NCBI GenBank assembly: GCA_963751455.1
Contig: CAVVUN010000002.1
Coordinates: forward strand, 96,001 to 160,000
From: Nitrospirota bacterium
GTDB taxonomy: Bacteria; Nitrospirota; UBA9217
Direction of reading: 5' to 3'
Length of the DNA stretch: 64,000 nt
The number at the start of each line of letters is the position of its first letter. The stretch's first letter is position 1. Made by a program: the position numbers and the translations under genes. Below the pieces are notes generated by a model, which saw only the letters and a program-made list of their open reading frames with translations, had not been told where the DNA came from and searched no databases. Below are positions 20,435-62,708 of the stretch, piece after piece.

Positions 20435-20602
20435 ATGAACTGCAAGATCTGCGGCAAACAAATAGAACTCAGGGCGGGTTGACGCGTCGTCACGTTGCGC
20501 TGCACGGGATGCAGCAAGGAATACCAGATCGCCGAGTACCTCAATGAAATAGATGCACACACTTGGGAGATTATTTCGCGACGAGCCTGCAACAGAGTGT
20601 AA
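20435..20602 (+). CDS. 55-aa dual-CxxC small selenoprotein (UGA at 20480-20482); absent from the ORF track
   Basis: GGAGG RBS; MNCKICGKQIELRAG-U-RVVTLRCTGCSKEYQIAEYLNEIDAHTWEIISRRACNRV; hairpin GCTGCA-CGGGA-TGCAGC at 20499-20515. Confidence 0.8.
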
Positions 20603-20704
20603 TTGTCCGCGCTTTTTCCTTTTTCAATGAAGCAGTCCACAACCAATTAGTAAAACTCCTTTTTTATCAATAGATTTAGACGATGCTCAAATTAGAATTT
20701 TACG

Positions 20705-20739
20705 TTGACATTTCCATAATAATATAATAATGTTTGCAT
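20705..20739 (+). promoter_or_regulatory. Sigma70 promoter (TTGACA-17-TAATGT) overlapped by a candidate ArsR operator
   Basis: TTGACA at 20705; AATATAATAATGTTTGCAT at 20721-20739 matches the reverse complement of 24971-24989 at 17/19 positions. Confidence 0.6.
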
Positions 20740-20786
20740 ATAATAAGCAGCTAAAAACTTCTCCTGAAAGGAATGGACAGTTAGGA

Positions 20787-21038
20787 ATGAAACTTCACGA
20801 CCCGATAAACATCATGCTTGACTGCTGCATCCCGGACAAAAAGAGACTAATGCTCGAGTTGAGCAAATTATCTCCTGGTGAAACGCTCAAAATCGAGGTA
20901 GATAACTGCGTCATGTCCAAGGCAATGGTAGAGGATTTCGTAAAAAACAAATGGTACAGCATTGTTCAGACCGTTGAGCGGGATGATTTCACCGTTTTGC
21001 ACATACAAGCCAAGACTATAGACACGAGCACAGTTTGA
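20787..21038 (+). CDS. TusA/SirA-like sulfur carrier
   Basis: 83 aa; CCIP at the CPxP position and L..LSPGETLKIEVDN pattern. Confidence 0.6.
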   Translation: MKLHDPINIMLDCCIPDKKRLMLELSKLSPGETLKIEVDNCVMSKAMVEDFVKNKWYSIVQTVERDDFTVLHIQAKTIDTSTV

Positions 21039-21063
21039 AATCCGGGCAATTCAAGGGGCGACC

Positions 21064-21405
21064 ATGATTCCCATAGAAAAAAGAATCGAACTGTTGAAGA
21101 TAATAGCACACCCTGTGCGGGTAAAAATTCTCGAAGACCTGACGAAGAGCGTGAAGTGCGTAAGCGATTTCGAGGAGTCGCTCGACATCAGCCAGCCGAA
21201 TGTGTCCCAGCACCTTTCACTGCTTCGCTCTCACGGCGTCATAGATTTTTATATTGACGGAAGGCTGAAGTGCTATTTCCTCAGGGAGCCGCTCATTCCC
21301 GATCTGCTCGAACTATTGAAGAAAGAATATGAAGAAGATGTTCCGGCGCCGGCATGCTGCCCGGTGACAAAAAAGGGAACTTATCCAGGCGAAAGGAGAC
21401 ATTAA
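21064..21405 (+). CDS. ArsR/SmtB-family repressor with C-terminal CC
   Basis: AHPVRVKIL and SQPNVSQHLSLLR HTH; Cys in KCV, KCY and PACCP. Confidence 0.88.
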   Translation: MIPIEKRIELLKIIAHPVRVKILEDLTKSVKCVSDFEESLDISQPNVSQHLSLLRSHGVIDFYIDGRLKCYFLREPLIPDLLELLKKEYEEDVPAPACCPVTKKGTYPGERRH

Positions 21406-21410
21406 GAAGG

Positions 21411-21695
21411 ATGAAGAAACACATGATCACACTCTATGTTAACGACCCTATGGGGAAACGCTGATTATCCAATACGGAAGCCGCCGGTCGGGCGGAAACG
21501 GAATTCGGCGCACAAATCGTAGTGATCAAGAAGACATCGAATGAGTACAGCCAAGAGAAAGACCCGCCTCCGTGCCCGTCAGTAATGGTGAACGGCAGGT
21601 TCATCGCCAGGAACGACACTATCAAGTATCAGGCGCTCAAGACGGCGCTCCTGAGCGACAGCGACATAGAGGAGACGGCGTCATTATCGCCGTAA
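21411..21695 (+). CDS. Small thioredoxin-like selenoprotein, NDPMGKRU motif (UGA at 21462-21464); absent from the ORF track
   Basis: 94 aa through the UGA; PCPSVMVNG cis-Pro-like motif; SECIS-like CCGCC-GGTCG-GGCGG at 21481-21495; paralog at 32645. Confidence 0.85.
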
Positions 21696-21776
21696 CCGGT
21701 CTAAAGATGTGGTCCCAAATCGTAAGTCAGTAGCATGTATTAATTGCAGTTAAGGAAGTCACGAAAGGAGGCTGAA

Positions 21777-22133
21777 ATGTCGAAAACCGTTACTCTGTAT
21801 TTATCAACATCGCCGTATTCCTACGAGAACACCTTAACAAGTGCCCGCATTGCTGAATCGGCCTTGAACAAGGGCCATACCGTCAATCTCATTGCGTCGG
21901 CTGACGGTATCTATTGTTTCCTGACAAAACAGAAGGCGAAGGGCATACTGAATGCCGAGGAGGAATTTTCCCGGCTTATTCAAAAGGGGCTGAAGGTGTA
22001 CCTTTGAGGCGGGTGTCTCAACTTTCGCCGTGCGGCGAAAGACGATTACCTTGCAGGTTCTGAGGTCGGCTCCCTCAAGGGTTTGTTTGCAACCATGGGC
22101 GAGAGCGACGTCTGGATCAACGTCGGAGCATGA
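21777..22133 (+). CDS. DsrE/TusD-family sulfur relay protein with Sec (UxxC; UGA at 22005-22007)
   Basis: AAGGAGG RBS; SPY..ADGIY..VYL-U-GGCLNFR; readthrough gives the normal 118 aa length; hairpin TTTCGCC-GTGC-GGCGAAA at 22023-22040. Confidence 0.87.
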
Positions 22134-22175
22134 TTCAAAATGCGGATTGCGGAATTAAAACACAAGGAGGATGAG

Positions 22176-22529
22176 ATGGCTGCCATAGCAATGATTCTGA
22201 AGCGGTCGCCTTATGGCGACATCAACGCGGCCGAGGCCGTGCGGCACGCTCTCGGAGCCGTGTCAGGCGAATTGAGCGTGGACCTGATCCTGATGGACGG
22301 CGGAGTACTGCTTGCGAAGAAAGGACAGGACGACACCGGAACCGGCTTCACCAATCTCGAAGGCGCTCTCAAGGACTGCATCGACATGGGTGTAAGTGTG
22401 TATGCGGATGACTACTCCTTGAAGACCCAACGCGTAGGGCTGAGCGATGTGGTAGAGGGCGTAAAACCAGTCAGCGCCAAAAATATTGCGCAACTGGTGA
22501 ATGAGGCAAAATCGACGATGATATTTTGA
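22176..22529 (+). CDS. DsrF/TusC-like protein
   Basis: RSPYG..AEAVRHA..MDGGV..VYADDYSL pattern; AAGGAGG RBS; second gene of the trio. Confidence 0.8.
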   Translation: MAAIAMILKRSPYGDINAAEAVRHALGAVSGELSVDLILMDGGVLLAKKGQDDTGTGFTNLEGALKDCIDMGVSVYADDYSLKTQRVGLSDVVEGVKPVSAKNIAQLVNEAKSTMIF

Positions 22530-22541
22530 GAGGAGGCTGCT

Positions 22542-22823
22542 ATGCTCGTGATGATTAAAAGTGCACCCGACACGACGGATGGGGCGCTCGGCTTGACCCT
22601 TGCGAAGGAAGGCAGTGCTGATCTTGTCCTGCTGCAGAACGGAGTCTACTTTGCGCAAAAGGAACGACTCGGCGCTTTTTCCGGTGCGGTGTACGTCCTG
22701 GGTGACGACAAGAGGCTCCGAGGTCTCAAGGATTCAGAAATGGATGATCGCGCGAAGACCATTGACTACGACAAGCTGACGGACATTATTACCGGAGGAG
22801 AAAAGGTTGTGGGAATGTTTTAA
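22542..22823 (+). CDS. DsrH/TusB-like protein
   Basis: LLQNGVY..VYVLGDD..RGL..IDYDKL; 93 aa. Confidence 0.82.
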   Translation: MLVMIKSAPDTTDGALGLTLAKEGSADLVLLQNGVYFAQKERLGAFSGAVYVLGDDKRLRGLKDSEMDDRAKTIDYDKLTDIITGGEKVVGMF

Positions 22824-22900
22824 AACAGTTAAGGCTAAGGTTAAGTTAAAAAACTCAACCTCAGTCTCGGCCTAAAACCGTTACACAAGGGGAGGATACT

Positions 22901-24091
22901 ATGGCAAGGATCGTTGTTTTAGGGGGATCGTTCGGGGGATTGACAGCGGCCTTTGAGCTGAAGCGGCTGCTCGGGAAGAAAGCGGATGTAACCGTAGTGA
23001 GCGACGATGACCGGTTCGTGTTCCTGCCGTCGCTGCCGTGGCTTATTATGGGGTGGAGAAGGCCGAAGGACATCACGCTCAAGGTCGGCGATATTTTGAA
23101 ACCGAAGGGGATCGCTTTCGTCCATGAAGCCGCGAAGCAGGTTGACGCCGACGCATCGAAGGTAATCACTTCTCAAGGCAAGGAGCTGCCTTACGATTTT
23201 CTCGTCATATCGACAGGTCCGCATCTCTCCTTCGATGAAATTCCGGGACTGGGCCCGGACAAAGGGCATACGGACTGTACCTTTACACTCGACCATGCGG
23301 TAAAGACGGGTGAAACATGGAAAAAAATTCTTGAGAACCCTGGTCCGATCGTCGTCGGATCATCGCAGATGGTGAGCTGCTTCGGCCCATCCTATGAACT
23401 TGCCTTTGAAATGGATGCCGAGCTTCGGCGTCGCAAGATGCGCCACAAGGTCCCCATCATCTATCTCACGTCGGAGCCTTACCTCGGCCATATGGGCGTC
23501 GGCGGTCTCGGCAAATCAAAAACGTTCATGGAAAACGAGTTTGCCGAACGTGATATCAAGCCGTTTATTAACCAGGCAATTCAGGAAGTGGCGCCCGGAG
23601 AGATACGGCTCAAGGACGGAAACAAAATTCCCTTCAAGCTCGCGATGATTGCCCCGCCGTTCAAGGGCGTGCCCGCCGTCATGCCGCTCGGAAATCCGCG
23701 CGGGTTCATCCCGGTTGATAAAAACTACCGTCACATGAAACACAAGAATATTTTTGCCATAGGCGTTGCAATGGCCATTGCACCGCCGGAAGCTACTCCG
23801 GTGCCGACCGGCGTGCCGAAGACCGGATTCATGACCGTAAAGATGGCAAAGATCGCTGCGGCGACTGTCGCCTCGGATATTACCGGCAAGCCAGCGCCTT
23901 TGGCTGATGAACTCGGCGTGGTCTGTCTCATGGACATGGGAAACACAGCCGCGTTCATGAAAGCGTATCCAGTACTGCCTCCCCGGCAGAGTTCGTATAT
24001 GAAAAAGACGATCTGGGCAAAATGGATGAAGGTCAGGTTCGAGAAATATTTCCTGTGGAAAATGAAGAGGGGGCTTACGAATCTGCCATGA
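22901..24091 (+). CDS. sqr: Sulfide:quinone oxidoreductase-family flavoprotein
   Basis: GGSFGG Rossmann motif; SCFGPSYE, VPKTG and VCLMDMG carry the two catalytic Cys; amphipathic C-terminal FEKYFLWK. Confidence 0.8.
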   Translation: MARIVVLGGSFGGLTAAFELKRLLGKKADVTVVSDDDRFVFLPSLPWLIMGWRRPKDITLKVGDILKPKGIAFVHEAAKQVDADASKVITSQGKELPYDFLVISTGPHLSFDEIPGLGPDKGHTDCTFTLDHAVKTGETWKKILENPGPIVVGSSQMVSCFGPSYELAFEMDAELRRRKMRHKVPIIYLTSEPYLGHMGVGGLGKSKTFMENEFAERDIKPFINQAIQEVAPGEIRLKDGNKIPFKLAMIAPPFKGVPAVMPLGNPRGFIPVDKNYRHMKHKNIFAIGVAMAIAPPEATPVPTGVPKTGFMTVKMAKIAAATVASDITGKPAPLADELGVVCLMDMGNTAAFMKAYPVLPPRQSSYMKKTIWAKWMKVRFEKYFLWKMKRGLTNLP

Positions 24092-24492
24092 AAAAAGAGC
24101 TATTGAAGCTGCATGCTGATTTTTGCAAGATATTTTCAAATGCCATGCGGCTTGAAATACTCTGCCTGCTAAAGACAGGAGAGCTGACAGTCGGCGAGAT
24201 CACCGGGAAGCTTGAAATTTCAAAGGCGAATACGTCCCAGCATCTGGCCCTCATGCGCATGACGCGTATTCTGACAACGAGAAGAAAAGGCAATAATGTT
24301 TATTATGGAATCGCCAATAAAAAAATCTGCCGGGCATGCAGCCTGATGCAGGAAGGCCTGGAACAGCTTTATGGAGATGATACGACCCCACCCCGCAACT
24401 CCCCCCTTGCCAAGGGGGGATTAAGGGAGGTGTTAAAGGAGGGACAATATGACGAAGATAGTAAAAAATGTATCGATCATGTGCTTCCATGA
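24088..24492 (+). CDS. ArsR-family repressor (BigR/SqrR-like Cys in RLEILC); tail extended by a palindromic repeat
   Basis: HTH ANTSQHLALMR; Cys in helix 2 and ICRAC; ATGA overlap with sqr. Confidence 0.8.
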   Translation: MKKELLKLHADFCKIFSNAMRLEILCLLKTGELTVGEITGKLEISKANTSQHLALMRMTRILTTRRKGNNVYYGIANKKICRACSLMQEGLEQLYGDDTTPPRNSPLAKGGLREVLKEGQYDEDSKKCIDHVLP

Positions 24493-24871
24493 CGAGCTCT
24501 GCCAGGTTTACAATGCGCTCATGACTGCATTGAGCATCCTCAGGGAAGGCTCAAAAGTCACGATGTTTTTCGGATCTCGCGGAATCAACGCGGTCCACAA
24601 GGATAAGGTGAAGGACCTCAAGTGTCTGCCGGACCAGCCCAAGGAAGAAGGCGATGCAGTGATGAAAAAAATGGAGGAAATGGAACTGCCGACAGTCGAG
24701 GACCTCTTCTTCATGCTAATCGCAGAAGGGGGGGCGGTCCTCGCCTGCCCGCTGAACGTCTCCCTGTTCAATATTACTGCGGGGCAGTTGATCGACGGCG
24801 TCAAGGTGGCGGATCCTGCGAAGTACTATAAAGAAATCATGATTCCTGCGGATATGAACCTGACTTTTTAG
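24449..24871 (+). CDS. DsrE2/DsrE-like sulfur transferase
   Basis: VTMFFGSRG..ELPTVEDL..VLACP pattern; AGGAGG RBS. Confidence 0.72.
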   Translation: MTKIVKNVSIMCFHDELCQVYNALMTALSILREGSKVTMFFGSRGINAVHKDKVKDLKCLPDQPKEEGDAVMKKMEEMELPTVEDLFFMLIAEGGAVLACPLNVSLFNITAGQLIDGVKVADPAKYYKEIMIPADMNLTF

Positions 24872-24970
24872 ATGGGCTCTTGCAAAAGTCCACGCGACCC
24901 GGACCTTACTCTTCTGCGGTATGATAAAAAGTGACTTTTGCAAGAGACGCAATATTTTTTTCACCGATAC

Positions 24971-24989
24971 ATGCAAGTATTATTATATT
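24971..24989. promoter_or_regulatory. Second copy (inverted) of the candidate ArsR operator, upstream of the MMPL gene
   Basis: ATGCAAGTATTATTATATT; 17/19 identity to the reverse complement of 20721-20739. Confidence 0.55.
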
Positions 24990-25011
24990 TCTATGTATAG
25001 AGGGGGAGTAC

Positions 25012-28000
25012 ATGCGTAAATTTTCTTTAGTCGAATTTTCAGTCGACCATCCCAAGCTCATTGTCGTCCTGTCGATCATTCTTACCGTCGTCTTCATGAC
25101 CCAGTTCCCAAAAGTGAGGACGGACACGAACCCCAAGAACATGCTGCCGCCTACGTCTGCCGTCCGGGTCGGGAACGATGAAATCGAAAAGACCTTCGGC
25201 CTGTATGAGGACATGATCGTCCTCGGAATCCAGAACGAAAAGGGCATCCTGAATACGGACACCCTCGGCAAAATTCAGCGGATCACCGATGAGACCCTGA
25301 AGATCAAAGGCGTTGCGGCCCGGGACGTATCGAGCTTCACGACCATTGATAACGTCACAGTTGAGGGTGAGACGTTAATGGTGAGCCCGCTCATGACCGC
25401 GGTGCCGAAGACGGATAAAGAGCTGTCCGTCATGAGGAAGGCCCTCTTCGAGAATCCGCTCTTCATCGACCGCATCATATCGAAAGACGGCAAAACCACG
25501 GCTATCTATGTCCCTCTCGAAAAGGGCTCAAACGGAAAAGAGGTCGCGGACAAAATTCGGGAGCTCGTCAGGAAAGAGAAGGGCGACGAAAAATACTATG
25601 TTGCCGGCGATCCCGTGGCAAGGGACACCTTCGGAGCGGACATGTTCAAGCTCATGGCCGTATTCGCGCCCATAGCCGGGATGGTCATGCTGATCGTTAG
25701 ATTTCTCATGTTCAAGGACCTGTTCCTCTCAATCACGCTGATGATGGACGCCATGATCAGCATCGTATGGAGCATGGGACTCCTGATCGCTCTCGGATTT
25801 CCCATCCACATCATGAGCTCCATGGCCCCCGTGTTCCTGATGGCAATCGCAACGGACAGCATGCACATTTTTAACGAGTTCTACTTCCGGTTCCGTGAGA
25901 AGAAAGACAAGCGGGCTGCGATCATCGCCACCATGCAGGCGGTCAGCCGTCCGGTCCGGAATACCGCCCTTGCAACCGCAGCTGGTTTCGCCGTGCTATT
26001 GTTCATGAACATCATCCCGGTCAAGGTTTTCGGCGGACTTGTCGCGTTCGGGACGATAGCCCTTCGTGTCCTGAGCTTCAGCTTCATTCCCGCGATGTTC
26101 ATGTTCGTGAAGGAGGAAAAGATCGAGAAAATAGCGCGATCAGAGGACGCTGAAGCAGGCGGTTCGGTCTTCCTGAAGAAACTGGCCGGGCTCGGTATCC
26201 GCAAACCCCTGACAACCGTTCTTGTCGGGATCGTGCTGATCGTAGCCGCCATCATCGGCATTTCAAAAACGATCGTAAACAACAATATGGTGGAGTGGTT
26301 CAAAAAGGGCAGCGAAGTGCGAGTCGCCGACACGGTCATGAACAAGGCCCTGGGCGGGACATCTCTGGGCTATATCGTGGCTATCTCCGACAAGGACGAC
26401 TACATTAAAACGCCGGAAGCCATGCGATTTATCGAAGGACTTCAACGCCGCCTGGAGAAACTGCCGGTTGTCGGAAAGACTACTTCGGTTGTTGACTATG
26501 TCAAGAGGATCAACCGAGTGCTCCATAACGACAACCCCAAATTCGACGCAGTCCCCGGGACAAAGGAGATGATCGGCCAGTATCTGTTCCTTTTCTCCAT
26601 GTCGGCGAAGCCGTCCGATCTCGACAACGTCGCTGACTATCCCTTCCGCAAAGCCAATATCTGGGTGCAGCTAAAGACCTGGGATGCAAAGGCCATGGAA
26701 TCGGTAATCGCAGAAGTCAATGCATTCAAAAAGGAGAACCCGACCCCGATGGAATTCAAGCCTGCCGGGATTGCCTACTTCAACCTGGTCTGGAACCATG
26801 AAGTTCTTTGGGACATGGTAAAAGGCCTTGTTTTGGCACTCATTGTCGTATTTGCTATCCTTGCATACGATTTCCGGTCCATCAAATGGGCTGTTATCGG
26901 GTATATCCCGCTCCTGTTCACGATCCTGCTCATTTATGGGGTCATCGGTTATATCGGCAAGGATTTTGACATGCCCATCTCGGTCATGAGCTGCCTCTCC
27001 CTCGGCATGGCCGTGGATTTTGCCATCCACTTTGTGAGCAGGTTCAGGCAGCGACTGAAAGAAATTCAGGGAACGGGCGACGCGAAACAACATATAACAG
27101 ATGCCTTACTCTGGACTGCAGCTCGTCCGGGGAAGGGTATCATGCGGAACGCCATCCTGTTCGCCGCGGCTTTCGCGGTAATGCTCTTTGCTCCGCTGAC
27201 GCCGTATGTCACGGTAGGCGCCTTCATCGTGAGCATGATGATGCTGAGCGCTCTTATGACGATACTCTATTTGCCCGCCCTCATAACATTGCTGCGGGGC
27301 TGGCTCTTCCAGGGAGGTACTGACGTGAAACGTGTTGCTGCAACAGCAATTGTTCTGGCATTTGCGATATTTACATCGGCAGCGGCTGCCGCGGACAGCG
27401 GAACGGATATCATGAAAAAATCCCAGGCTGCTTTTCTTTATTCAGGCAAGGACTTCAAGGCCCGCATTCAGATGAAGCTGATCACTCAGAGCGGGCAGGA
27501 GCGGCTTCGGGAGCTGACGATGCTCAGAAAGAATTTCGGCGAGCCGGGCGGCGAGCAGAAGTACTTCATGTATTTCTTTCTGCCGGCGGATGTCAAGGAC
27601 ATGACCTTCATGGTCCACAAGCACCCCGGCAGGGACGCGGACCGCTGGCTGTTCGTGCCGGCGATCAGCATGGTCAGGCGGATCGCGGCCAGGGACAAGA
27701 GCTCAAGCTTCGTAGGCTCAGATTTTTCCTATGAAGACGTTTCAGGGAGAAATATTGACGACGATACGCACGTCCTGGTGAAGGAAGAAAAGCTCGACAC
27801 CAAAGATTGTTATGTGGTCAAGAGCACGCCCAAAGCTGCAGATGTGGATTACTCGTACAAAATGTCCTGGATCGACAAAGGCACTCATCTGCCGCTCAAG
27901 GAAGAGTACTATGACAGAAAGGGCGATCTTTACAAAGTCTTTACAGCGAATGAGATCAAAACGATAAAGGGATTTCCTACTATTACGAAGCGTACTATGA

Positions 28001-28125
28001 AGAATGCTTTGAGCGGACACCGCACGGATGTTACTTTCCTTAAGGCTGATTATGACCTGGGGATCGACGACAATCTTTTCTCTGAACGTTTTCTGAAACA
28101 GCCTCCCAAGAGGTGGATTGAATGA
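25012..28125 (+). CDS. MMPL/RND-family transporter in frame with a LolA-like outer-membrane lipoprotein-sorting domain (internal start at 27325)
   Basis: Two MMPL repeats (IATDSMH, GMAVDFAIH), then FVGSDFSYED and D.DRWLFVPA..VRRI LolA-like motifs. Confidence 0.8.
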   Translation: MRKFSLVEFSVDHPKLIVVLSIILTVVFMTQFPKVRTDTNPKNMLPPTSAVRVGNDEIEKTFGLYEDMIVLGIQNEKGILNTDTLGKIQRITDETLKIKGVAARDVSSFTTIDNVTVEGETLMVSPLMTAVPKTDKELSVMRKALFENPLFIDRIISKDGKTTAIYVPLEKGSNGKEVADKIRELVRKEKGDEKYYVAGDPVARDTFGADMFKLMAVFAPIAGMVMLIVRFLMFKDLFLSITLMMDAMISIVWSMGLLIALGFPIHIMSSMAPVFLMAIATDSMHIFNEFYFRFREKKDKRAAIIATMQAVSRPVRNTALATAAGFAVLLFMNIIPVKVFGGLVAFGTIALRVLSFSFIPAMFMFVKEEKIEKIARSEDAEAGGSVFLKKLAGLGIRKPLTTVLVGIVLIVAAIIGISKTIVNNNMVEWFKKGSEVRVADTVMNKALGGTSLGYIVAISDKDDYIKTPEAMRFIEGLQRRLEKLPVVGKTTSVVDYVKRINRVLHNDNPKFDAVPGTKEMIGQYLFLFSMSAKPSDLDNVADYPFRKANIWVQLKTWDAKAMESVIAEVNAFKKENPTPMEFKPAGIAYFNLVWNHEVLWDMVKGLVLALIVVFAILAYDFRSIKWAVIGYIPLLFTILLIYGVIGYIGKDFDMPISVMSCLSLGMAVDFAIHFVSRFRQRLKEIQGTGDAKQHITDALLWTAARPGKGIMRNAILFAAAFAVMLFAPLTPYVTVGAFIVSMMMLSALMTILYLPALITLLRGWLFQGGTDVKRVAATAIVLAFAIFTSAAAAADSGTDIMKKSQAAFLYSGKDFKARIQMKLITQSGQERLRELTMLRKNFGEPGGEQKYFMYFFLPADVKDMTFMVHKHPGRDADRWLFVPAISMVRRIAARDKSSSFVGSDFSYEDVSGRNIDDDTHVLVKEEKLDTKDCYVVKSTPKAADVDYSYKMSWIDKGTHLPLKEEYYDRKGDLYKVFTANEIKTIKGFPTITKRTMKNALSGHRTDVTFLKADYDLGIDDNLFSERFLKQPPKRWIE

Positions 28126-29414
28126 GGAAGTTCAAGACAGTAGGGCACAGATGTCAGATGACAGACTGGATCGGACTGTTTGTTTTTAGTCTGTGCTCTC
28201 TCTTCTGCGTCCTGATTTCTTCATCAGTGTTTGCAGCCGATTTTTCTTTTCACGGTTTCGCGCAGGGCAATTATTCGAGGGATACGGGTGCGGACAATCC
28301 TGACGGCAAGGAATTGAAATGGTCCGAGGAGCGGGTCCAGCTTAAGTTCGAAGCCTCGCAGGACCCGTTCCGGCTGTTTATCAAAGAAGACGTTTTTTAC
28401 GATCATCTCGATAGGGAAGCCCATGCCGAACTGCGCGAGGGTTATGCCGACTATGCCGCCGGGACGTGGGATGCTCGCGCCGGAAGGCAGATTATCACTT
28501 GGGGCCTTGGGGACCTCTTGTTCATCAACGATGTTTTTCCCAAGGACTACGAGGCGTTTTTTTCCGGCAGGCCGCTTGAATACCTCAAGAAGGGCGTTGA
28601 CGCAGTCAAAATCGGGGCCTATCCTGGCTTTGTATCTGCGGAATTTGTCCTGATTCCGATTTTCGAGCCCAACACGTTTCCTGATCCCAACCGCTTCTCA
28701 ATGTTCGATCCCTTGTCAGGCGTTACGAACAGGGCAGAGCAAAAACCGGCTTCGACCGCCGAAAACAGCGAAGTTGCGCTGCGGCTCTATCGCGACGTGA
28801 TGGGGCTCGACGGTTCCCTCTATTTCTATAAAGGATATTTCCGGCAGCCTTCAGTCCTGCCCGATAACCCAATGGCTCCGACAAAGCTCACGTTCTTTTA
28901 CCCGAAACTGAACGTCTATGGCGCAAGCCTGCAGGGAAGGGCCGTGGATGGCGTGGTGAGCCTGGAAGCCGGGTATTATGATTCAAGAGAGGACCAGTCC
29001 GGCAATAATCCCATGATCCCGAATTCCCAGACGCGGTATCTCCTGGGCTATCAAAGGCAGTTCTGGGAGGATTTCACGCTGGGCCTCCAGTACTACGGCG
29101 AGTACATGCAGGATTACGGAGAATACGGACAGAGCCTGCCTGCCGGGTTCCCTATGGACAAGCGCCTGCATCAGCTCGCAACGATCAGACTCATGCAATT
29201 TTTGAGGCACCAGACGTTGAGGCTTTCCTTCTTCGCGTTTTACGGGATTTCCGACAGGGATTACCTGATCAATCCCGAAATAAAATATAACTTCACGGAC
29301 TCTATCTGGTTTGCTCTCGGAGGCAATTTCTTCGGCGGGGAAAAACCCTGGACGCAGTTTGGACAACTGGCGAATAATGACAATGTCTATACTCAGGTAA
29401 GATATGAGTTCTAA
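28122..29414 (+). CDS. Outer-membrane beta-barrel protein (DUF1302-like partner of MMPL/LolA-like modules)
   Basis: Signal peptide; LREGYADY..RAGRQIITWG; C-terminal QVRYEF. Confidence 0.7.
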   Translation: MRKFKTVGHRCQMTDWIGLFVFSLCSLFCVLISSSVFAADFSFHGFAQGNYSRDTGADNPDGKELKWSEERVQLKFEASQDPFRLFIKEDVFYDHLDREAHAELREGYADYAAGTWDARAGRQIITWGLGDLLFINDVFPKDYEAFFSGRPLEYLKKGVDAVKIGAYPGFVSAEFVLIPIFEPNTFPDPNRFSMFDPLSGVTNRAEQKPASTAENSEVALRLYRDVMGLDGSLYFYKGYFRQPSVLPDNPMAPTKLTFFYPKLNVYGASLQGRAVDGVVSLEAGYYDSREDQSGNNPMIPNSQTRYLLGYQRQFWEDFTLGLQYYGEYMQDYGEYGQSLPAGFPMDKRLHQLATIRLMQFLRHQTLRLSFFAFYGISDRDYLINPEIKYNFTDSIWFALGGNFFGGEKPWTQFGQLANNDNVYTQVRYEF

Positions 29415-29456
29415 AAGTTCAGGATATTTCTCGGTACGGCTTATTTGGGAGCATTC

Positions 29457-30857
29457 ATGTCAGTAAAACTTACGATCATCGGCGCGGGGCCTGGCGGTTA
29501 TGTCGCCGCGATCCGCGCTGCGCAGAAAGGCGCGCACGTTACCGTTGTTGAAGACACGGAAGTGGGCGGAACCTGCCTGAACAGGGGATGCATCCCGACC
29601 AAGACGCTCATCGCCTCTGCTGAGGCGCTCAATCTGGTACGCCGGGCCGCTGACTACGGCGTCGATCTTCCAGGCGAAGCCGGATACAACCTCGCCAGGA
29701 TCCGGGAGCGAAAGGACAAGGTTGTCTCCCTGCAGGTGAAGGGCATTCGCGGGCTGTTCAAAAGCTGGGGAGTGACGGTCATCGAAGGCCGCGGCTCGCT
29801 CCTGTCTTCCGATACGGTAAGGGTCACCGGGAAAGACGGCGCGTCCGTGGACGTCAAGTCCGATAAGATAATCATTGCCACTGGTTCGAGCCCCGTAAAA
29901 TTTGCCGGTTTTCCTTTTGACGGAGAGAGCGTCATCACGAGCGACGAGGCAATCCAGCTCAAAAAAATCCCGAAGAGCCTGCTCATCGTCGGCGCAGGAG
30001 TCATCGGGTCCGAGTTCGCGTTCATCTACCGAAGCTTCGGAGCTGTGGTGTCGATCGTCGAAATGATGCCGCGCGCGCTTTCGACGGAAGACGAAGACAT
30101 GGCGGACATTATCGAGCGGGAATTCAAGAAGTCAGGAATCAAGCTTCAGACCAACGTGAAGATCGAGAACGTCGAGAAAGACCCGGAGGGCATGATCGTC
30201 GCAAAACTCTCGAACGGCCGCGAAATCCGTGCGGAGATGGTTCTTGTATCCATCGGCCGCGGCATGAACTCCGGGAACCTCGGTCTTGATGCCGTCGGAG
30301 TCGCGACGGGGAAGCGCGGGGAGATCATCGTGAATGACAGGATGGAAACTACGGCTCCGGGCGTCTACGCCGTCGGAGACGTTACCGGCAAGATCCTGCT
30401 TGCCCATGTCGCTTCGCAACAGGGACTTGTCGCCGTTGAGAACGCTCTCGGCAATGCAGAAACAATGGACTACACGGTTGTCCCGTCCGGCGTCTTCACC
30501 ATGCCCGAAATCGGCAGCGTCGGCTTACGGGAGCATGAGGCCCGAGAGAAAGGGATCAAGTACCATGTCGGCCGGTTCCCTTACCGTGCGCTCGGCAAGG
30601 CCCACGCCATGGGGGAGATCACCGGCATGGTTAAGGTGCTGTCCGATGCTGAATCGGACAAAGTCCTCGGGGTCCATATCTGCGGCGCTCACGCAACGGA
30701 CATGATCCATGAAGGCGCGCTTGCCATTCAAACGGGAACGACCGCTAAAAAGCTGGGGCAAATGATCCACGCCCATCCCACCCTTGCCGAGGCAGTCATG
30801 GAGGCGGCAGAGGACACGCATGGGTGCGCGATTCATATACCGAAGACGGCCAAGTGA
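29457..30857 (+). CDS. lpdA: Dihydrolipoyl dehydrogenase
   Basis: GAGPGGY, GGTCLNRGCIPTK and HAHPTLAE motifs. Confidence 0.92.
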   Translation: MSVKLTIIGAGPGGYVAAIRAAQKGAHVTVVEDTEVGGTCLNRGCIPTKTLIASAEALNLVRRAADYGVDLPGEAGYNLARIRERKDKVVSLQVKGIRGLFKSWGVTVIEGRGSLLSSDTVRVTGKDGASVDVKSDKIIIATGSSPVKFAGFPFDGESVITSDEAIQLKKIPKSLLIVGAGVIGSEFAFIYRSFGAVVSIVEMMPRALSTEDEDMADIIEREFKKSGIKLQTNVKIENVEKDPEGMIVAKLSNGREIRAEMVLVSIGRGMNSGNLGLDAVGVATGKRGEIIVNDRMETTAPGVYAVGDVTGKILLAHVASQQGLVAVENALGNAETMDYTVVPSGVFTMPEIGSVGLREHEAREKGIKYHVGRFPYRALGKAHAMGEITGMVKVLSDAESDKVLGVHICGAHATDMIHEGALAIQTGTTAKKLGQMIHAHPTLAEAVMEAAEDTHGCAIHIPKTAK

Positions 30858-30928
30858 TTATCGATTGCGAATTTCGGATTGCAGATTTAGGTCAAGCTGA
30901 TTATTTTGTATTGATCTCAATAGAAGAT

Positions 30929-31420
30929 TCAAGCCCTGTAAGCATACAGCATACCGGTTAATAAGAGCACTGTAATGCCCATAAAAAAGTTGATTTTCAC
31001 CAGATTCAGGGATACTGTTTGCAGCTTCTGAACTTTTTCAGGATGGCCTCCTTCCGACGACAACCGTGCTATCCCTGGTGTCAGGACCAACCCTCGGTAA
31101 AAATGAATGCACGTCATTATTACTACGAACAGAATCTTTGCAACAAGCGATCTCACCCGCAGGGCGGAAAGTCCGGGGAAACCGGTAAAATCATGCGAAG
31201 CGACACTCATGAAGATTCCGCTTGCGATGATCAGAAAAATGCTGATATTTGCCAGCGGAACAAAGCGTTTGCTCAGAGGTCCCATGATTTTACCTGGTTG
31301 GTCAAGGGTCTTCCCCGCAACCGGGATGGCAACATACAAAATAAAAAAAATTCCGCCTATCCAGACAACTGCCGATAACAGATGCACCCACATAGTTACC
31401 GTCAACAATAATCGGTCCAT
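30929..31420 (-). CDS. CopD/DUF4149-like four-helix membrane protein
   Basis: WVHLLSAVVWIGGIFF motif; four hydrophobic segments. Confidence 0.7.
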   Translation of the reverse strand: MDRLLLTVTMWVHLLSAVVWIGGIFFILYVAIPVAGKTLDQPGKIMGPLSKRFVPLANISIFLIIASGIFMSVASHDFTGFPGLSALRVRSLVAKILFVVIMTCIHFYRGLVLTPGIARLSSEGGHPEKVQKLQTVSLNLVKINFFMGITVLLLTGMLYAYRA

Positions 31421-31438
31421 TTCATAAACCTCCTGTAG

Positions 31439-31474
31439 AATTTCGTGGGGAGAATTCCTCCCCCCACGAAATTT
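31439..31474. terminator. Stem-loop between the Cys peptide gene and the copD-like gene (terminator or mRNA stabiliser)
   Basis: AATTTCGTGGGG...CCCCACGAAATT inverted repeat. Confidence 0.6.
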
Positions 31475-31480
31475 TGCCGC

Positions 31481-31594
31481 CTACTTCTTCTCCTTCATAG
31501 GTGGAACGCACCCGCAACCGCAGCCGCAGCTTGATGCCTTGGTCTCCTTTTCAACTTTCTCAGCGGTTGCGTTTTTTTCGGTCGTATCTGCCAT
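31481..31594 (-). CDS. 37-aa peptide with a CGCGCGC motif (unannotated)
   Basis: AAGGAGGT RBS; MADTTEKNATAEKVEKETKASSCGCGCGCVPPMKEKK; hairpin directly after the stop. Confidence 0.7.
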   Translation of the reverse strand: MADTTEKNATAEKVEKETKASSCGCGCGCVPPMKEKK

Positions 31595-31793
31595 CACAGT
31601 CACCTCCTTCCGCGGCGATAGCCGTTGATTTCAGATTTTTGGTGTTCATTATAAGTTCGGATTCCAGGTCTTTTTTATATTCCCTTAATCGTATGAGCAG
31701 TTCTTTTTTACTAAAAGGTTTATCGTCAATTTTTGGTTCGCCTTTGCACGGATTTTTCAACTTAATGAATTCACTCCCCTGACACATACGCAA
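31560..31793 (-). CDS. Small hypothetical protein resembling the coiled-coil tail of the adjacent ArsR
   Basis: AAGGAG RBS; LREYKKDLESEL versus LLEYRKRLESEL in the ArsR. Confidence 0.45.
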   Translation of the reverse strand: MRMCQGSEFIKLKNPCKGEPKIDDKPFSKKELLIRLREYKKDLESELIMNTKNLKSTAIAAEGGDCDGRYDRKKRNR

Positions 31794-31813
31794 CTGACTC
31801 CTTTATTAAGTTA

Positions 31814-31832
31814 ATTAGCATCAACTTATATA
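31814..31832. promoter_or_regulatory. Candidate operator ATTAG-N5-ACTTATATA (copy 1)
   Basis: Same motif at 32263-32281; both lie just upstream of minus-strand gene starts. Confidence 0.55.
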
Positions 31833-31854
31833 ATTAAGAAAAAAATATTTCTCT

Positions 31855-32250
31855 TCACTTTCTCTCAAGTTCTGAAATTCTCTTTTTAACCTGTTTCAGC
31901 TCGCTCTCAAGGCGTTTTCTATACTCAAGCAAAACTTCTTTTGGATCGGAGGCCCTTTTTTTCTTGCCGAGTTCACATCCGCACGTACAGATTTTTATCA
32001 GTTCATGCTGGCATTTGTCGAGGCTTGCTTCGTTCAACGAATAGAAAATATGATATCCTTTCCTCTCATCCATAACCAGGCCAGCCTGTTTTAATACACG
32101 GAGATGTTGCGAAACGGCGGATTGGGTGATCCCCAGTGCCTCGGCCATTATATTAACAGACAAGGGACCTGCCTTGAGTAGTTCTATAATTTTTATTCTG
32201 GTTTCTACTGAGAAAACCTTAAATGCTTCCGCTTCAATTTTCACATTCAC
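31855..32250 (-). CDS. ArsR/SmtB repressor with CTCGC motif and coiled-coil tail
   Basis: ETRIKIIELL and ITQSAVSQHLRVLK HTH. Confidence 0.88.
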   Translation of the reverse strand: MNVKIEAEAFKVFSVETRIKIIELLKAGPLSVNIMAEALGITQSAVSQHLRVLKQAGLVMDERKGYHIFYSLNEASLDKCQHELIKICTCGCELGKKKRASDPKEVLLEYRKRLESELKQVKKRISELERK

Positions 32251-32262
32251 ACCTTAAAGTAT

Positions 32263-32302
32263 ATTAGTTATTACTTATATACTGTGAGTTATATAAAGTC
32301 AA
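32263..32302 (-). promoter_or_regulatory. Promoter (TTGACT-17-TATAAG) overlapping operator copy 2
   Basis: -35 at 32302-32297; quasi-palindrome GTATATTAG..CTTATATAC. Confidence 0.55.
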
Positions 32303-32644
32303 GTGGTTTTTTCAAGCACGTAACGCACATAAGACTATTATGTATCAATAATGTTTTTCAAAAAATTACGAGGCGTTTTTTTCGGGCAGGCCAATGGAAT
32401 ACAAAAAGGCGTTGACTGCGCAAATGTATCCGTGTTTCGCTTCCTTCGAGTTCGCCAGCACACCTTCTCCATAGGCTGCCGAGATTCCGCGAGGAGAAGT
32501 GGCATCCATCTCCGCGGTTTCCAGGTTACACCATTTGTCGGCTCAAGTAGAGGTTACCCTCCTAAGTATTCATTGACTTTTACATAAAAGGAATATTAAC
32601 ATTCCAGCAGGCATCCTGTGCACCCAGGGCTAAAGGAGGCAATC

Positions 32645-32899
32645 ATGAAAAAGCGGACAATTACGATGTACATGAACGACCCGATGGGCAAGTGGTGAAT
32701 TTCGCTGATGGAGTCCGCCGGTCGGGCGGAGAAGGAGTTGGGCGCTGAAGTCGTTGTGATCAAGAAGACGTCCCCGGAATACGCATCGGAAAAGGACGCA
32801 CCTCCCTGTCCATCGGTAAAGATTGATGATTCTTTTGTTGTTAAGAGGGGCTTGGTCACCTATGATCAGCTTAAGGCCGCTGTATTAAAAGAGGACTAG
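32645..32899 (+). CDS. Second thioredoxin-like selenoprotein, NDPMGKWU motif (UGA at 32696-32698)
   Basis: AAGGAGG RBS before ATG 32645; 84 aa; hairpin TCCGCC-GGTCG-GGCGGA at 32714-32730; homologous to 21411-21695 on both sides of the UGA. Confidence 0.88.
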
Positions 32900-33063
32900 C
32901 AACCAGCTGAAAAACTCGAGAGCGTCATAGAGTGTCATTAAGAGGAGCTATCGTTGTGACGTGGCGATCTCGATTTTTGAAGTCGTTATGTAACTGCAGA
33001 TTGCTTCCTTCGCTCGCAAAGACGGCTCAAAAAAGTTTACACGTGTTTCATGAGGCAAATCGG

Positions 33064-33711
33064 ATGAACTTTAAAAAACTCAATATGCACGAATTAAACG
33101 TTCTGAATCAGAAGCGGTACGCAATCACTGCCTGGTTTTACGATATCCTGGACTACCCCTGGGAGCTTCAATACCGGAAATGGAGACCCGAGCTTCTGGG
33201 GGATTTGAGCGGAAAAGTGCTGGAAGCGGGGGTCGGGACCGGGCGAAACCTGGAATACTACCGCCCCGGAGTGAACTTGACCGCAATCGATTTCAGCCCC
33301 GCCATGCTGAAGAAGGCAGCGAAACGCTGCGCGAAAACATCCTGTAAGGTTGAGTTCGTGCATGAAGATGCCACGCATATGGAATCAATCCCTTCAGCGA
33401 GCTATGATTGGGTAGTGGCTTTTTTTCTTTGCTGCGTCCTTCCCAATGAGCTGCAGGATGAGGCGGTCTCGGAGTTCGCGCGCGTGCTGAAGCCGGGCGG
33501 CAGATTCCGGCTTCTGGAAATGAAATATTCCAAGGACCCCGTCCTGAGAAAGCGTCAGGATTTTTTTGCGCCGTTTGTCGCAAAGGTGTACGGCGCCGGG
33601 TTTGACCGGGAAACATTGAGACATATTCAATATAATAAGAAACTTAAGGTGACAGGAACCCGCTATCTGAAACACGACACGTATCTGTTGATCGATGGTA
33701 TCCGGGAGTAA
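33064..33711 (+). CDS. Class I SAM-dependent methyltransferase
   Basis: VLEAGVGTGRN, IDFSPAML and RVLKPGG motifs; FLCC. Confidence 0.85.
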   Translation: MNFKKLNMHELNVLNQKRYAITAWFYDILDYPWELQYRKWRPELLGDLSGKVLEAGVGTGRNLEYYRPGVNLTAIDFSPAMLKKAAKRCAKTSCKVEFVHEDATHMESIPSASYDWVVAFFLCCVLPNELQDEAVSEFARVLKPGGRFRLLEMKYSKDPVLRKRQDFFAPFVAKVYGAGFDRETLRHIQYNKKLKVTGTRYLKHDTYLLIDGIRE

Positions 33712-33802
33712 TGAGCATAGTGCCTCGAAAAAAAGCCCCGATATGTGATATTTGAAACAGTCGCCCTCCCTCGATACGCAGAATTCCGTCTCAACTATCC
33801 GA

Positions 33803-33831
33803 TTGACCTTTCGTGCAAAAAACAATAATAT
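33803..33831 (+). promoter_or_regulatory. Sigma70 promoter for selD (TTGACC-17-TAATAT)
   Basis: Near-consensus hexamers with a 17 nt spacer, ~120 nt before the ATG. Confidence 0.5.
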
Positions 33832-33949
33832 TCAAGTTGGCACCTGATAAACGAGCTTCATCGAAGCTTATGCCATCCGATGAGTTCGAATTACGCTGAG
33901 TATAGGCCCTCCGTTACTATTGAGGCTAATCCAAGAAAGGAGCAACTCC

Positions 33950-34997
33950 ATGGAAATAAAACTCACACACCTTTCAAGCTGCGCCGGTTGAGCCTCTAAA
34001 TTCAGCCCTGCTGATCTGTCCCAGGTCCTGGGACAATTACCGAAAATCATCGATCCCAATGTACTCGTCGGTTCCTCGAATGCCGATGATGCGGGTGTAT
34101 ACCGCATCACCGACGAAATTGCCATGGTCTTTACCGCCGACTTTTTTACGCCGATCGTCGACGACCCGTACTGGTTCGGCGCCATCGCCGCGGCGAACTC
34201 GCTCTCGGATGTTTATGCCATGGGCGGCAAGGCCCTGGTTGCCTTGAACATCGCGGCACTGCCCGGCACGCCTGATTTTGCGGAGATCAACAAGCGGATC
34301 ATGCAGGGCGGCATCGATAAAATGAATGAGGCCGGAGTGGCGATCATCGGCGGACATACCATCAAGGACAAGGAGCCGAAATTCGGATTTGCCGTTCTCG
34401 GCTCTATCCATCCCGGTAAAATACTCGATAATACCAAGGCGAAACCGGGTGATGCGCTGATTATCACGAAGCCCATCGGGACAGGGATCATTGCAACCGG
34501 AATCAAAGCCGGAAAATGCAGCCGTCGAAACAGCTGACCTCTTCACGAAGTCCATGGCAACCCTCAATAAACGGGCAAGCGAGATTATGCTCGAGGCAGG
34601 CGTGAACACGGCCACGGACATTACCGGGTTCGGCCTGATCGGTCATCTGAGCGAAGTTCTTATAGCGAGCAGGTGCAGCGCGCGGCTGTACGCAAGCAGT
34701 GTCCCGTTTTTCAAGGAAGCGATAACGCTCGCGGACATGGGCATGGTTCCGGGCGGTACACGGGCCAACCTGAAGAACTATGAATCGATCGTGGAATGGG
34801 CATCAGGTGTTTCAAATACCGAACGGTTTTTGATGAATGACGCTCAGACCTCGGGCGGGCTTCTTCTATTCGTTTCGAAGGGTAATAAAAAAAGGCTGGT
34901 GTCCGCGCTTCTTAAGGATAACATCATGGCCGCAGAAATAGGTGCACTGGTTGATACTGCTCCCATCGGGGATAAACGGATATTTGTGGAGAAATGA
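33950..34997 (+). CDS. selD: Selenide, water dikinase, Sec form (UGA at 33989-33991); one apparent indel near 34520
   Basis: LTHLSSCAG-U-ASK, DDAGVY, DFFTPIVDDP, DVYAMGG, TDITGFGL and DAQTSGGLL motifs; hairpin TGTCCCA-GGTCC-TGGGACA at 34017-34035. Confidence 0.92.
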
Positions 34998-35120
34998 AGA
35001 GACATTTTTACAATGGAGGATGAAAATTCCTTCGCCCTTCCCTGAGCCTCCGGTCAACGGAGAGGTCACAGTCTGCCTCTCCGCAAGAGAGGGACGGGGA
35101 GAGGGGGGATTTTCGAGGTT

Positions 35121-35900
35121 ATGGATATCCCTTTTGTGCTGTTTCTGGCTGCGATCGGCGGGTCTGTCGGATTTCTTTCAGGCCTGCTCGGCATAGGCGG
35201 AGGCATTGTCATGTTTCCGCTGCTGCTGTATGTACCGCCCCTCCTCGGCTGGAACAGCATTGACGTAAAGAGCATTACCGGTCTCACCATGGCCCAAGGC
35301 TTCTTCTCCGCCCTTACCGCGATGTTCTATTACAGCAAAAATGCGCTTGTCAACAAAGCACTCGTAGTAACGCTCGGCCTTTCCTTGTTTACTTCCTCGC
35401 TTGCCGGCTCGTTCTTTTCGAAGACTGTTCCGGACGGCCTCCTGCTCATGGTCTTCGGAACTTTGGCGCTCATCGCCGCGGTGATGATGCTCATACCGAG
35501 AAGTTATATGCGTGATGATCTGACCGAGGACAAGGTGTATTTTCATAAAGCGACCGCCATCGCTATCGGCCTCCTTCTGGGGTTCGCTATTGGCCTGGTC
35601 GGCCAGGGCGGCGCGTTCATCCTCATCCCGACGCTTCTCTATGTCTTGAAGATCCCGCTCAGGGTCGCGCTGGGAAGCACGCTGGCAATCGGGCTCTTTT
35701 CGTCGTCAGCCGGCCTGGTCGGCAAGGTGGCGACTCACCAGGTGCCGTTTCTCCTGGTCCTTCCGCTTCTGGCGGGCGCTGTTCCGGCTGCACGGTGGGG
35801 GAGCATGGTCGGGAAAAGAACTAATACCATTTTTTTGAAGTGGCTTCTCTCGGCGATCATCTTCGGGACGGCAATCAAAGTCTGGATCGATATTATATGA
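35121..35900 (+). CDS. TauE/SafE (TSUP) sulfite/sulfur-compound exporter
   Basis: GLLGIGGG and GLVGQGGAFILIP repeats; eight TM helices. Confidence 0.88.
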   Translation: MDIPFVLFLAAIGGSVGFLSGLLGIGGGIVMFPLLLYVPPLLGWNSIDVKSITGLTMAQGFFSALTAMFYYSKNALVNKALVVTLGLSLFTSSLAGSFFSKTVPDGLLLMVFGTLALIAAVMMLIPRSYMRDDLTEDKVYFHKATAIAIGLLLGFAIGLVGQGGAFILIPTLLYVLKIPLRVALGSTLAIGLFSSSAGLVGKVATHQVPFLLVLPLLAGAVPAARWGSMVGKRTNTIFLKWLLSAIIFGTAIKVWIDII

Positions 35901-44952: not shown

Positions 44953-45173
44953 CAGAGAATGCATTGCAAATCGGAAATTGTAAATATTAAAATGCAAATT
45001 TATGGAAGAAAAAGCCAACAAGTCAAAAATACTGAAAGAGCTAAGCCTTGAATGGGCACTCGATGAGACAACGCAGCTTTGTAATATTATCGGAAAATCA
45101 GTCGTGACAGCCAAGACACAGAAATAAATTTGCAATTTGACATTTGCAATTTGCAATTTCATCAGGAGGCCTT

Positions 45174-47648
<2,475 letters not shown>

Positions 47649-56324: not shown

Positions 56325-56684
56325 ATGAGCTCCCCCTTTGAAAAAAGGGGGATTAAGGGGGATTTAAGCATCAGCGATTCAACAAACAGGTAACAATATT
56401 AAATGCGTCTGTATTAGTTTAGTTGTTAAGTCGTTTAGTTGTTGAGTAGTTGCTGCTTAATCTCCCAACTGCTTAGAGTCTGTTTTTAAATGTCCTTCTT
56501 CGTCATGCCGGACTTGATCCGGCATCCAGAAGGTTATGAAAAGACTGGATTCCAGCGACTCGGCTGAGCGTTCGACTGAGCTCACGCCGAAGTCTCGTCG
56601 AAGTCTTTCGCTGGAATGACGGTACATGATGAAATGGCAGTTAAAATACAAACTTACTTGATAAGTTATCATTTGTAATGAATC

Positions 56685-61600: not shown

Positions 61601-61635
61601 ATAGCTACTTCATGGTGAGTTCAAAATTGGATGAC

Positions 61636-61881: not shown

Positions 61882-62048
61882 GACAATAGCATGTAGCAGT
61901 TAGATCGGGTAGAGCGAACCGAAACCTGATGCAATCCAATCCTGATTCTGCCAAATAATAGTACACTTCACTTCTTTCTAACAAACGTAAAAGTTCCACC
62001 TGCCCTATTTCTTGACATCCGGTCCTTATGGGTGTACGATACCAATAA

Positions 62049-62707: not shown

Positions 62708-62708
62708 A

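Follow-up and report, generated by a model that had tools for sequence, protein, structure and literature searches.

Where does a bacterial operon begin and end when some of its genes are hidden by in-frame TGA codons, and what could such genes be for? The questions are raised by a span of 15 kb, positions 20435 to 35900 of a 64,000-nucleotide stretch of DNA (here the window) from a Nitrospirota bacterium (GTDB lineage UBA9217; assembly GCA_963751455.1, contig CAVVUN010000002.1, positions 96,001 to 160,000 of the forward strand). A first-pass annotation, made from the letters alone, had described the whole span as a single ArsR-controlled, selenoprotein-rich relay system for sulfur or selenium. 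The conserved unit is smaller: it is an ArsR-headed operon at 20705-29414, and the 15-kb span is not one unit. From its content this core is on balance probably, though by no means assuredly, an inducible system for sulfide-to-sulfane-sulfur handling and export.

A conserved core within the span

Relatives were found with patterns taken from our own alignment, which gave 63 genome loci and not an unbiased sample, and a six-frame profile search covered 401 genomes of the phylum. The supposed conservation of the cluster was borne out, as it is kept in many Nitrospirota, with the DsrE subfamily in 112 of the 401 genomes; the related loci are labelled as Nitrospirota metagenome-assembled genomes, except for single records named Nitrospinota, Betaproteobacteria or unclassified. 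The features within the core coordinates are as follows.

20705..20741, plus strand: promoter-like -35 hexamer and operator-like site 1, likely the ArsR1 site (matrix 40.4 bits, genome-wide best)
20787..21038, plus strand: degenerate TusA-like open reading frame (ORF; PF01206 19.8 bits, below the cut-off of 28.6)
21064..21405, plus strand: ArsR1, an ArsR/SmtB repressor (NF033788 above cut-off)
21411..21695, plus strand: TsoC-like thioredoxin-fold selenoprotein 1, motif NDPxGxxU, TGA at 21462 (NF045708 42.3 against 45)
21777..22133, plus strand: DsrE-like selenoprotein, U77xxC80, TGA at 22005, true stop at 22131 (PF02635)
22176..22529, plus strand: DsrF-like (PF02635; TIGR03010 30.7 against 94.15)
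22542..22823, plus strand: DsrH-like (PF04077; TIGR03011 38.8 against 49.2)
22901..24091, plus strand: sulfide:quinone oxidoreductase (SQR), type I-like (3HYV, E 5.5e-98)
24088..24492, plus strand: ArsR2, HlyU/SqrR-like by sequence (family models; 21/63 loci)
24449..24871, plus strand: DsrE2-like carrier with four invariant Cys (PF13686)
24969..24996, no strand assigned: operator-like site 2, directly 5' of the MMPL gene (matrix 33.9 bits, genome-wide second)
25012..28125, plus strand: HAE3/MMPL transporter running in frame into a LolA-like periplasmic protein, 1037 aa (PF03176, PF17131, TIGR00921)
28122..29414, plus strand: predicted DUF1302-like outer-membrane barrel (weak PF06980)

The core thus consists of the ArsR, a TsoC-like protein with selenocysteine (Sec), DsrE(Sec)-DsrF-DsrH, SQR, DsrE2 and the trio of HAE3/MMPL, LolA-like and DUF1302-like proteins. 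In the 63 loci DsrF occurs 61 times, DsrH 58, ArsR1 55, SQR 53, MMPL 29, the LolA-like gene 28, the barrel 27, ArsR2 21, the TsoC-like gene 19 and DsrE2 17. The gene order is conserved too: where enough DNA is in view, SQR is present in 48/52 loci, ArsR1 in 52/58 and the full transport trio in 21/41. The theme of an ArsR-headed set of sulfur carriers, already proposed, is supported.

The view of the whole span as one system is not supported. TauE is found in 13 loci, the CXXC gene in 9 and selD in 7; since the LpdA-like gene (twice on the opposite strand), the methyltransferase and the TusA-like ORF occur in only 4, 3 and 2 of the 63, these three cannot be counted as conserved parts. LpdA, the methyltransferase and selD are loose attachments or neighbours. 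The CXXC selenoprotein gene is a flanking, family-wide gene outside the operon, because it lies 5' of the operator and is present across the family (31/36 genomes, each match with one TGA), including genomes in which DsrE(Sec) was not found; it often comes after aspS.

The extra genes found within the operon are sulfur genes: YeeE (5 of 63 loci), rhodanese (4, one of them carrying Sec), further DsrE (8), HdrD-like (5) and also TauE. They fit the reading as a sulfur-handling system. Rhodanese genes with an in-frame TGA adjoin the operon in relatives (L059:2520-2951, L222, L223), and DsrM-like and HdrD/DsrK-like genes are inserted mostly in the gap between MMPL and the LolA-like gene (L078, L079, L080, L083, L106).

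How might such a set of proteins act together? SQR would oxidise sulfide at the membrane to polysulfide or S8, and sulfane sulfur would be loaded onto the very likely Sec of DsrE in a DsrEFH-like complex, to be buffered there and on DsrE2, while the MMPL, LolA-like and barrel proteins would export the apolar sulfur excess. ArsR1 may repress from two operators, its own and that of the pump, until its cysteines are modified, with the TsoC-like selenoprotein and DsrE2 possibly assisting as redox proteins or carriers. What these proteins do, what induces them, and what the pump carries and in which direction are here predicted from sequence.

The repressor and its putative operators

The regions upstream of ArsR1 in relatives have in common a -35 hexamer and an AT-rich dyad. 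A matrix built from 32 such sites (34 of the 56 regions gave one) has six matches of at least 17 bits at four places in the whole genome, and the two best scores genome-wide are those at 20714 before ArsR1 (40.4 bits) and at 24969-24996 before MMPL (33.9), the next reaching 21.6. In relatives, matches of at least 20 bits precede ArsR1 in 44/56 training regions and 4/8 others, MMPL in 11/45 and DsrE in 1/64; none was seen upstream of SQR (0/55), DsrE2 (0/25), ArsR2 (0/21), DsrF (0/63), selD (0/8) or the CXXC gene (0/8). Scans with generic promoter and terminator models hardly differed from chance. The shared putative operator motif likely ties the pump to the ArsR1 regulon and is the best evidence for its membership. 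From the same distribution the CXXC gene, selD and the second TsoC-like gene fall outside the predicted regulon.

The cysteines of ArsR1 are kept throughout the aligned homologs (C32 55/55, C70 55/55, C98 54/54, C99 54/54), and C32 and C98-C99 are what we take to be positions used by arsenic-sensing ArsRs. Is the operon then one for selenium or metalloids such as selenide or thio-arsenic, with ArsR1 sensing through CVxD and the C-terminal CC, the selenoproteins binding or reducing, and the pump exporting the product? The presence of selD next to the operon in 7/63 loci, of YedF in 4/63 and of ArsM-like genes in 3/63 would suit this, as would a relative (L038:15059-18076) in which a second ArsR1 copy heads an ArsM-like selenoprotein gene (a selenomethyltransferase), selD and tauE. 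However, the constant partners are SQR and DsrEFH and the variable ones YeeE, rhodanese, TauE and DsrE, the operator is missing before selD, and the versions with Cys have the same layout, so that, with no query aimed at Acr3 or ArsC, this possibility is considered very unlikely. ArsR2 has the first SqrR Cys here, but only 6/18 of its aligned homologs do.

Selenocysteine in the core and its neighbourhood

The five in-frame TGA codons (20480, 21462, 22005, 32696, 33989) are where the first-pass annotation had placed them, in the frames it gave, as checked in the sequence, and all five very likely encode Sec, its insertion being predicted. A hairpin like the bacterial Sec insertion sequence (SECIS) had been claimed behind each. 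With a rule modelled on the bacterial SECIS elements of PMC13188914 (loop G, 16-37 nt after UGA) all five pass, against a background of 5% (113/2264 TGA-closed long frames and 191/3753 sampled Cys codons of the same genome) and 1/10 of the ordinary TGA stops of the span, the thresholds having been chosen with these hairpins already known. In homologs the rule is passed by 50/62 DsrE, 17/19 TsoC-like thioredoxin, 8/9 CXXC and 7/7 SelD sequences. Two DsrE subclades have different SECIS stems at equal spacing from the TGA. An Rfam scan of the 64-kb window matched no family.

Retention of the codon itself is complete in the scored homologs of the 63 loci: DsrE 62/62, thioredoxin 18/18, CXXC 9/9 and SelD 7/7. 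Across the phylum a single TGA is present in 118/123 DsrE matches; of the remaining five, two are Cys forms, two are cut genes and one is a weak match. The Cys forms align their Cys with the Sec position of DsrE(Sec), in keeping with the earlier suggestion that U should align with C or U in homologs. The genes selA, selB and selC, for which a search had also been advised, are there, as the genome encodes selA, selB and two tRNA-Sec; selA is present in 104/112 phylum genomes with this DsrE subfamily, a count confounded by kinship. It had been anticipated, too, that standard ORF calling misses or cuts these genes, and 77 of the best 120 database relatives listed for DsrE break off at the last codon ahead of the UGA; the other 43 are full-length, some of them Cys forms assigned to Chloroflexota, Bacillota and Aminicenantales. 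The operon is common in groundwater and sediment Nitrospirota yet hidden from standard gene calling, and Sec at a sulfur-carrier site would tie sulfur cycling to selenium supply in these organisms.

SelD had been seen as a co-located selenium donor enzyme of the system. It is to be regarded as the housekeeping enzyme, because the gene is the sole copy in the genome, and it is adjacent in only 7/63 loci. Relative to five relatives it has one extra base at 34522-34523, giving a frameshift. This is likely an assembly error, because the assembly is indel-prone: 4/26 testable genes are split, and leuS (a single copy), dsrA and aprA are also broken. Among sequencing runs three were listed with a small share of this DNA, none of them of RNA, and their short contig pieces give nothing on expression or on the extra base of selD. 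The only copy of leuS (window 45144-47500) loses frame after about 300 codons, which is a sign of assembly indels.

A second selenium cluster is on a 9-kb contig (C13:3900-9200; L047) and includes the second tRNA-Sec, a LysR of selenium metabolism (NF040786 above cut-off), double-cubane reductase pieces, YedF (TIGR03527 above cut-off) and a rhodanese-like piece; it may be contamination (genome contamination 5.4%).

The DsrE(Sec)-DsrF-DsrH trio and the other sulfur proteins

The structure model of DsrE(Sec) (pLDDT 83) has a fold matching YchN, 2HY5 and 2D1P (TM 0.79 to 2HY5_A; 0.79-0.80 for 2HY5 and 2D1P). In a strong alignment (hhalign 97.6%) U77 is paired with the CxxC of the dsr-operon DsrE, at its first Cys, and a weak one (probability 0.4%) pairs it with C78 of TusD; by these alignments U77 occupies the reactive-cysteine position of DsrE. 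The trio stays below the type I models, with no match of DsrE to TIGR03012, 30.7/94.15 for TIGR03010 and 38.8/49.2 for TIGR03011, while a control trio from another genome (G055) passes all three. A quick tree (135 rows, 119 columns; near-duplicate database rows and rows outside 108-125 aa omitted; no type II reference) joins the Sec and close Cys forms of DsrE (support 99) in a group that excludes type I DsrE/TusD as well as the genome's own dsr-operon DsrE. Among 61 of 62 metagenome loci with Cys relatives (one weak match dropped), a type III-like SQR is present in 21 and an ArsR in 19.

In family f6 (L145-L147) a more distant DsrE with TGA (2/3 genomes) precedes a type III-like SQR, perhaps a separate gain of Sec. 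The idea that truncation at Sec caused the 'dsrFH but no dsrE' pattern of PMC11033732 was not borne out in a limited test: TIGR03012 does not recognise DsrE even when the UGA is read through, and it gives the uninterrupted DsrE of the dsr operon no more than 26 against 89; the published study used DRAM.

No second SQR was found in the genome, and this one is nearest to the Aquifex and Acidithiobacillus enzymes (3HYV, E 5.5e-98), with C126, C160 and C342 conserved. By the usual definitions of SQR types it appears type I-like, its nearest solved relatives being type I in a comparison without type IV and VI references. The four cysteines of the DsrE2-like carrier are kept in all 17 of the loci that have it.

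The Tso operon of Haft and Tolstoy (2025) reportedly comprises TsoA, TsoB, TsoC and TsoR. When the corresponding models were run on the proteins of the span, TsoA and TsoB had no match, the two TsoC-like proteins scored just under cut-off (42.3 and 44.5 against 45) and TsoR at most 45.3 against 115; the resemblance to that operon is in the two TsoC-like proteins, encoded beside ArsR genes, whose own products are far below the TsoR cut-off.

The transport trio

An MMPL, LolA-like and beta-barrel module had been noted, and its genes are present, but MMPL and the LolA-like protein form one frame of 1037 aa. The frame holds an internal ribosome site and GTG at 27313-27327, and the two are fused in 3/27 loci of relatives. 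Assembly error was considered as the origin of the fusion and rejected, as the junction is identical in L051 and in frame in L053 and L096. The LolA-like part matches 9TP6, 4Z48, 3BK5 and 3BUU. The last gene is predicted, by distant match, to be DUF1302-like: PF06980 matches weakly in 8/8 homologs, 2 of them above cut-off, and the Atlas first match (0.99) is in a DUF1302 cluster. A single-sequence structure model of the barrel (pLDDT 30) was discarded. By family the three proteins correspond to AmeD, AmeB and AmeA, and AmeABCD of Castellaniella defragrans is an exporter of apolar monoterpenes (PMC6394551).

Does the pump belong with the sulfur genes at all? The span could be a patchwork at an insertion hot spot, in which the pump moves membrane lipid and has only its neighbourhood in common with them. 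Such a description does fit the CXXC gene, LpdA and the methyltransferase, and there is a distant second LolA-like and barrel pair elsewhere in the genome (C1:622812-625082). The LolA-like ortholog is present in 69/401 phylum genomes. In 47 of these it occurs together with this DsrE, at a distance of no more than 12 kb in 38; the other 22 are LolA-only genomes, of which 18 were fetched: in 13 the trio is beside ArsR1, TauE, DsrE2, SQR, rhodanese or YeeE, and in 5/18 it has no sulfur gene or ArsR1 beside it, as a patchwork would allow. Since the operator is common to ArsR1 and MMPL and the pump and DsrE genes lie so close in 38 of 47 co-occurrences, the pump is placed with the sulfur genes; with sulfur genes also inserted between MMPL and the LolA-like gene, the patchwork idea is judged highly improbable. 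AupAB was dropped as an analog of the pump, none of the five terms looked for occurring in PMC5989066.

The dsr background of the genome

That this is not a canonical Dsr locus is true within the span, but a full dsr operon some 200 kb away bears on its function: dsrAB, dsrC, dsrH-E-F (with Cys), dsrT and dsrMKJOP-like genes are on the same contig. The trio of that operon (C2:332283-333499; L043:14284-15500) is a divergent Cys H-E-F of which only DsrH passes the TIGRFAM cut-off, possibly DsrEFH type II subtype 1. On contig C9 (L045:7486-14218) a sulfite-reductase-like protein with a fused TusA domain is encoded next to two further dsrC genes. The dsrAB of these classes are of reductive type according to PMC11033732, an assignment at class level and not from our own tree.

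Could the operon then be an inducible entry point to sulfur oxidation or disproportionation for energy? S0 imported or made by SQR would enter through barrel, LolA-like protein and MMPL and pass from DsrE(Sec)FH to DsrC for a reductive-type DsrAB working in reverse, which is the proposal made for DsrEFH type II. The genome has four DsrC-family genes, aprA and dsrMKJOP, and 109/112 carriers of the DsrE subfamily have dsrB (213/401 overall); this link is confounded by kinship, and 104/213 dsrB genomes are without this DsrE, including families f15 (0/14) and f17 (0/11), mostly with selA. A search for dsrD found none, though the positive control was silent too. In PMC13293266, DsrEFH type II passes sulfur in vitro from TusA by way of DsrE to DsrC, and the substrate range is expected by the authors to depend on the transport system. 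YeeE is inserted in 5 of the loci studied here, which also speaks for this role. On the other hand the genome's dsr operon already has an intact Cys DsrH-E-F trio, and neither dsrB nor dsrC is in any of the 63 loci. Such a role in energy metabolism is considered unlikely. It and sulfide handling with export are not mutually exclusive.

A wider and rather doubtful picture is that of a hidden, selenium-dependent S0 route in about half of the dsrAB-bearing Nitrospirota. SQR, Sec-DsrEFH and an adaptor-less RND/LolA/barrel shuttle under one repressor would carry S8 or polysulfide across the whole envelope to DsrC, and presumed sulfate reducers would switch to sulfide oxidation or disproportionation. 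If true, the trio would be the long-sought dedicated elemental-sulfur transporter. For the questions of how elemental sulfur crosses the Gram-negative envelope and whether sulfur can be oxidised, too, by bacteria whose DsrAB is of the reductive type, the second of them argued in PMC13293266, the operon offers small, named proteins that can be expressed, along with a pair of operator sites.

Points against sulfide handling and export

Several observations weigh against the proposal that the core serves sulfide handling and export. ArsR1 is without the first Cys of the SqrR/BigR pair (SqrR 41/107 positions), so that persulfide sensing by it is unproven. The near-universal dsrB of the carriers fits a role in energy metabolism as well. 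The MMPL protein has HAE3 (TIGR00921) as its best family at 177 bits, below the cut-off of 352; 20 of the 41 loci that are completely in view are without the pump, which did not turn up either in the metagenome loci of Cys forms, most of them on short contigs; and no ORF of the span is AmeC-like (COG4447). The export role is drawn by analogy from one characterised relative, and other roles have been proposed for related DUF1302/DUF1329 genes in bioRxiv 2020.07.04.188060.

Relation to known systems

All parts come from known families, and the combination is new as far as a literature search shows: no paper was found on a selenocysteine DsrEFH with SQR or the MMPL trio, and none that names DsrEFH and selenocysteine together, in a search that did not extend to Haft and Tolstoy 2025, which could treat a similar neighbourhood, or to all supplement figures of PMC13293266, which may show Nitrospirota clusters.

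One of the closest systems is the DsrEFH type II that PMC13293266 describes from cable bacteria and sulfate reducers. Both are divergent DsrE-F-H sets outside the type I models, with one reactive DsrE residue, in dsrAB genomes including Nitrospirota. Here the reactive residue is a TGA codon, selenocysteine being absent from the main text of that paper, and SQR and the MMPL trio under ArsR take the place of yeeE-tusA (YeeE 5 and TusA 3 of 63 loci), in a comparison made without type II HMM scores. DsrEFH type I (Allochromatium, 2HY5) and TusBCD (2D1P) are alike in fold (TM 0.79-0.80) and E-F-H order, whereas here all subunits are below the TIGR03010-12 cut-offs, on a separate branch, and outside a dsr or tRNA-thiolation operon. 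The DsrE-like UxxC selenoprotein family of PMC13188914 is likewise PF02635 with UxxC, but the listing there names neither partner subunits nor an operon or function.

AmeABCD (PMC6394551) is also a cassette of HAE3-type RND protein, LolA-superfamily protein (4Z48, 3BK5, 3BUU) and DUF1302-type barrel; it differs from the present trio, which has no AmeC-like gene, smaller subunits, a sulfur context and an MMPL-LolA fusion. The cst/SqrR/BigR sulfide-detoxification operons (PMC9774590) are repressor-headed with SQR and sulfur carriers too, but here ArsR1 is without a Cys pair of the SqrR type, the span does not encode a persulfide dioxygenase, and there are a Sec DsrEFH-like carrier and an RND trio.

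Flanking genes and other observations

The neighbour genes that had been named for the span are present, as judged by family-model matches. The TusA-like carrier is there as an ORF, but it is below the Pfam cut-off and its cysteines are not retained in one of two homologs. The features outside the core are these.

20435..20602, plus strand: dual-CXXC small selenoprotein, 55 aa, Sec16, TGA at 20480 (NF041197 58 bits, cut-off 40)
29457..30857, plus strand: dihydrolipoyl dehydrogenase, LpdA (TIGR01350 above cut-off; paralog on contig C1)
30929..32250, minus strand: ArsR3, a 77-aa ORF and a CopD-like membrane protein, a divergent unit (family models)
32645..32899, plus strand: TsoC-like selenoprotein 2, TGA at 32696 (NF045708 44.5 against 45; SECIS)
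33064..33711, plus strand: SAM methyltransferase (PF13649)
33950..34997, plus strand: SelD, Sec14, TGA at 33989 (TIGR00476; one extra base at 34522-34523)
35121..35900, plus strand: TauE/SafE-family membrane protein (PF01925)

TsoC-like selenoprotein 2 is 55% identical to copy 1, the three genes of the ArsR3 unit are also together in loci L033 and L218, and TauE is usually 3' of selD in relatives. ArsR2 overlaps DsrE2 by 44 bases (window 24445-24492) and is longer than most relatives, possibly through an indel. At the right end of the window (55120-63675) there are an IS481-like integrase, an SNF2 helicase and small HTH/Gp49-like genes.

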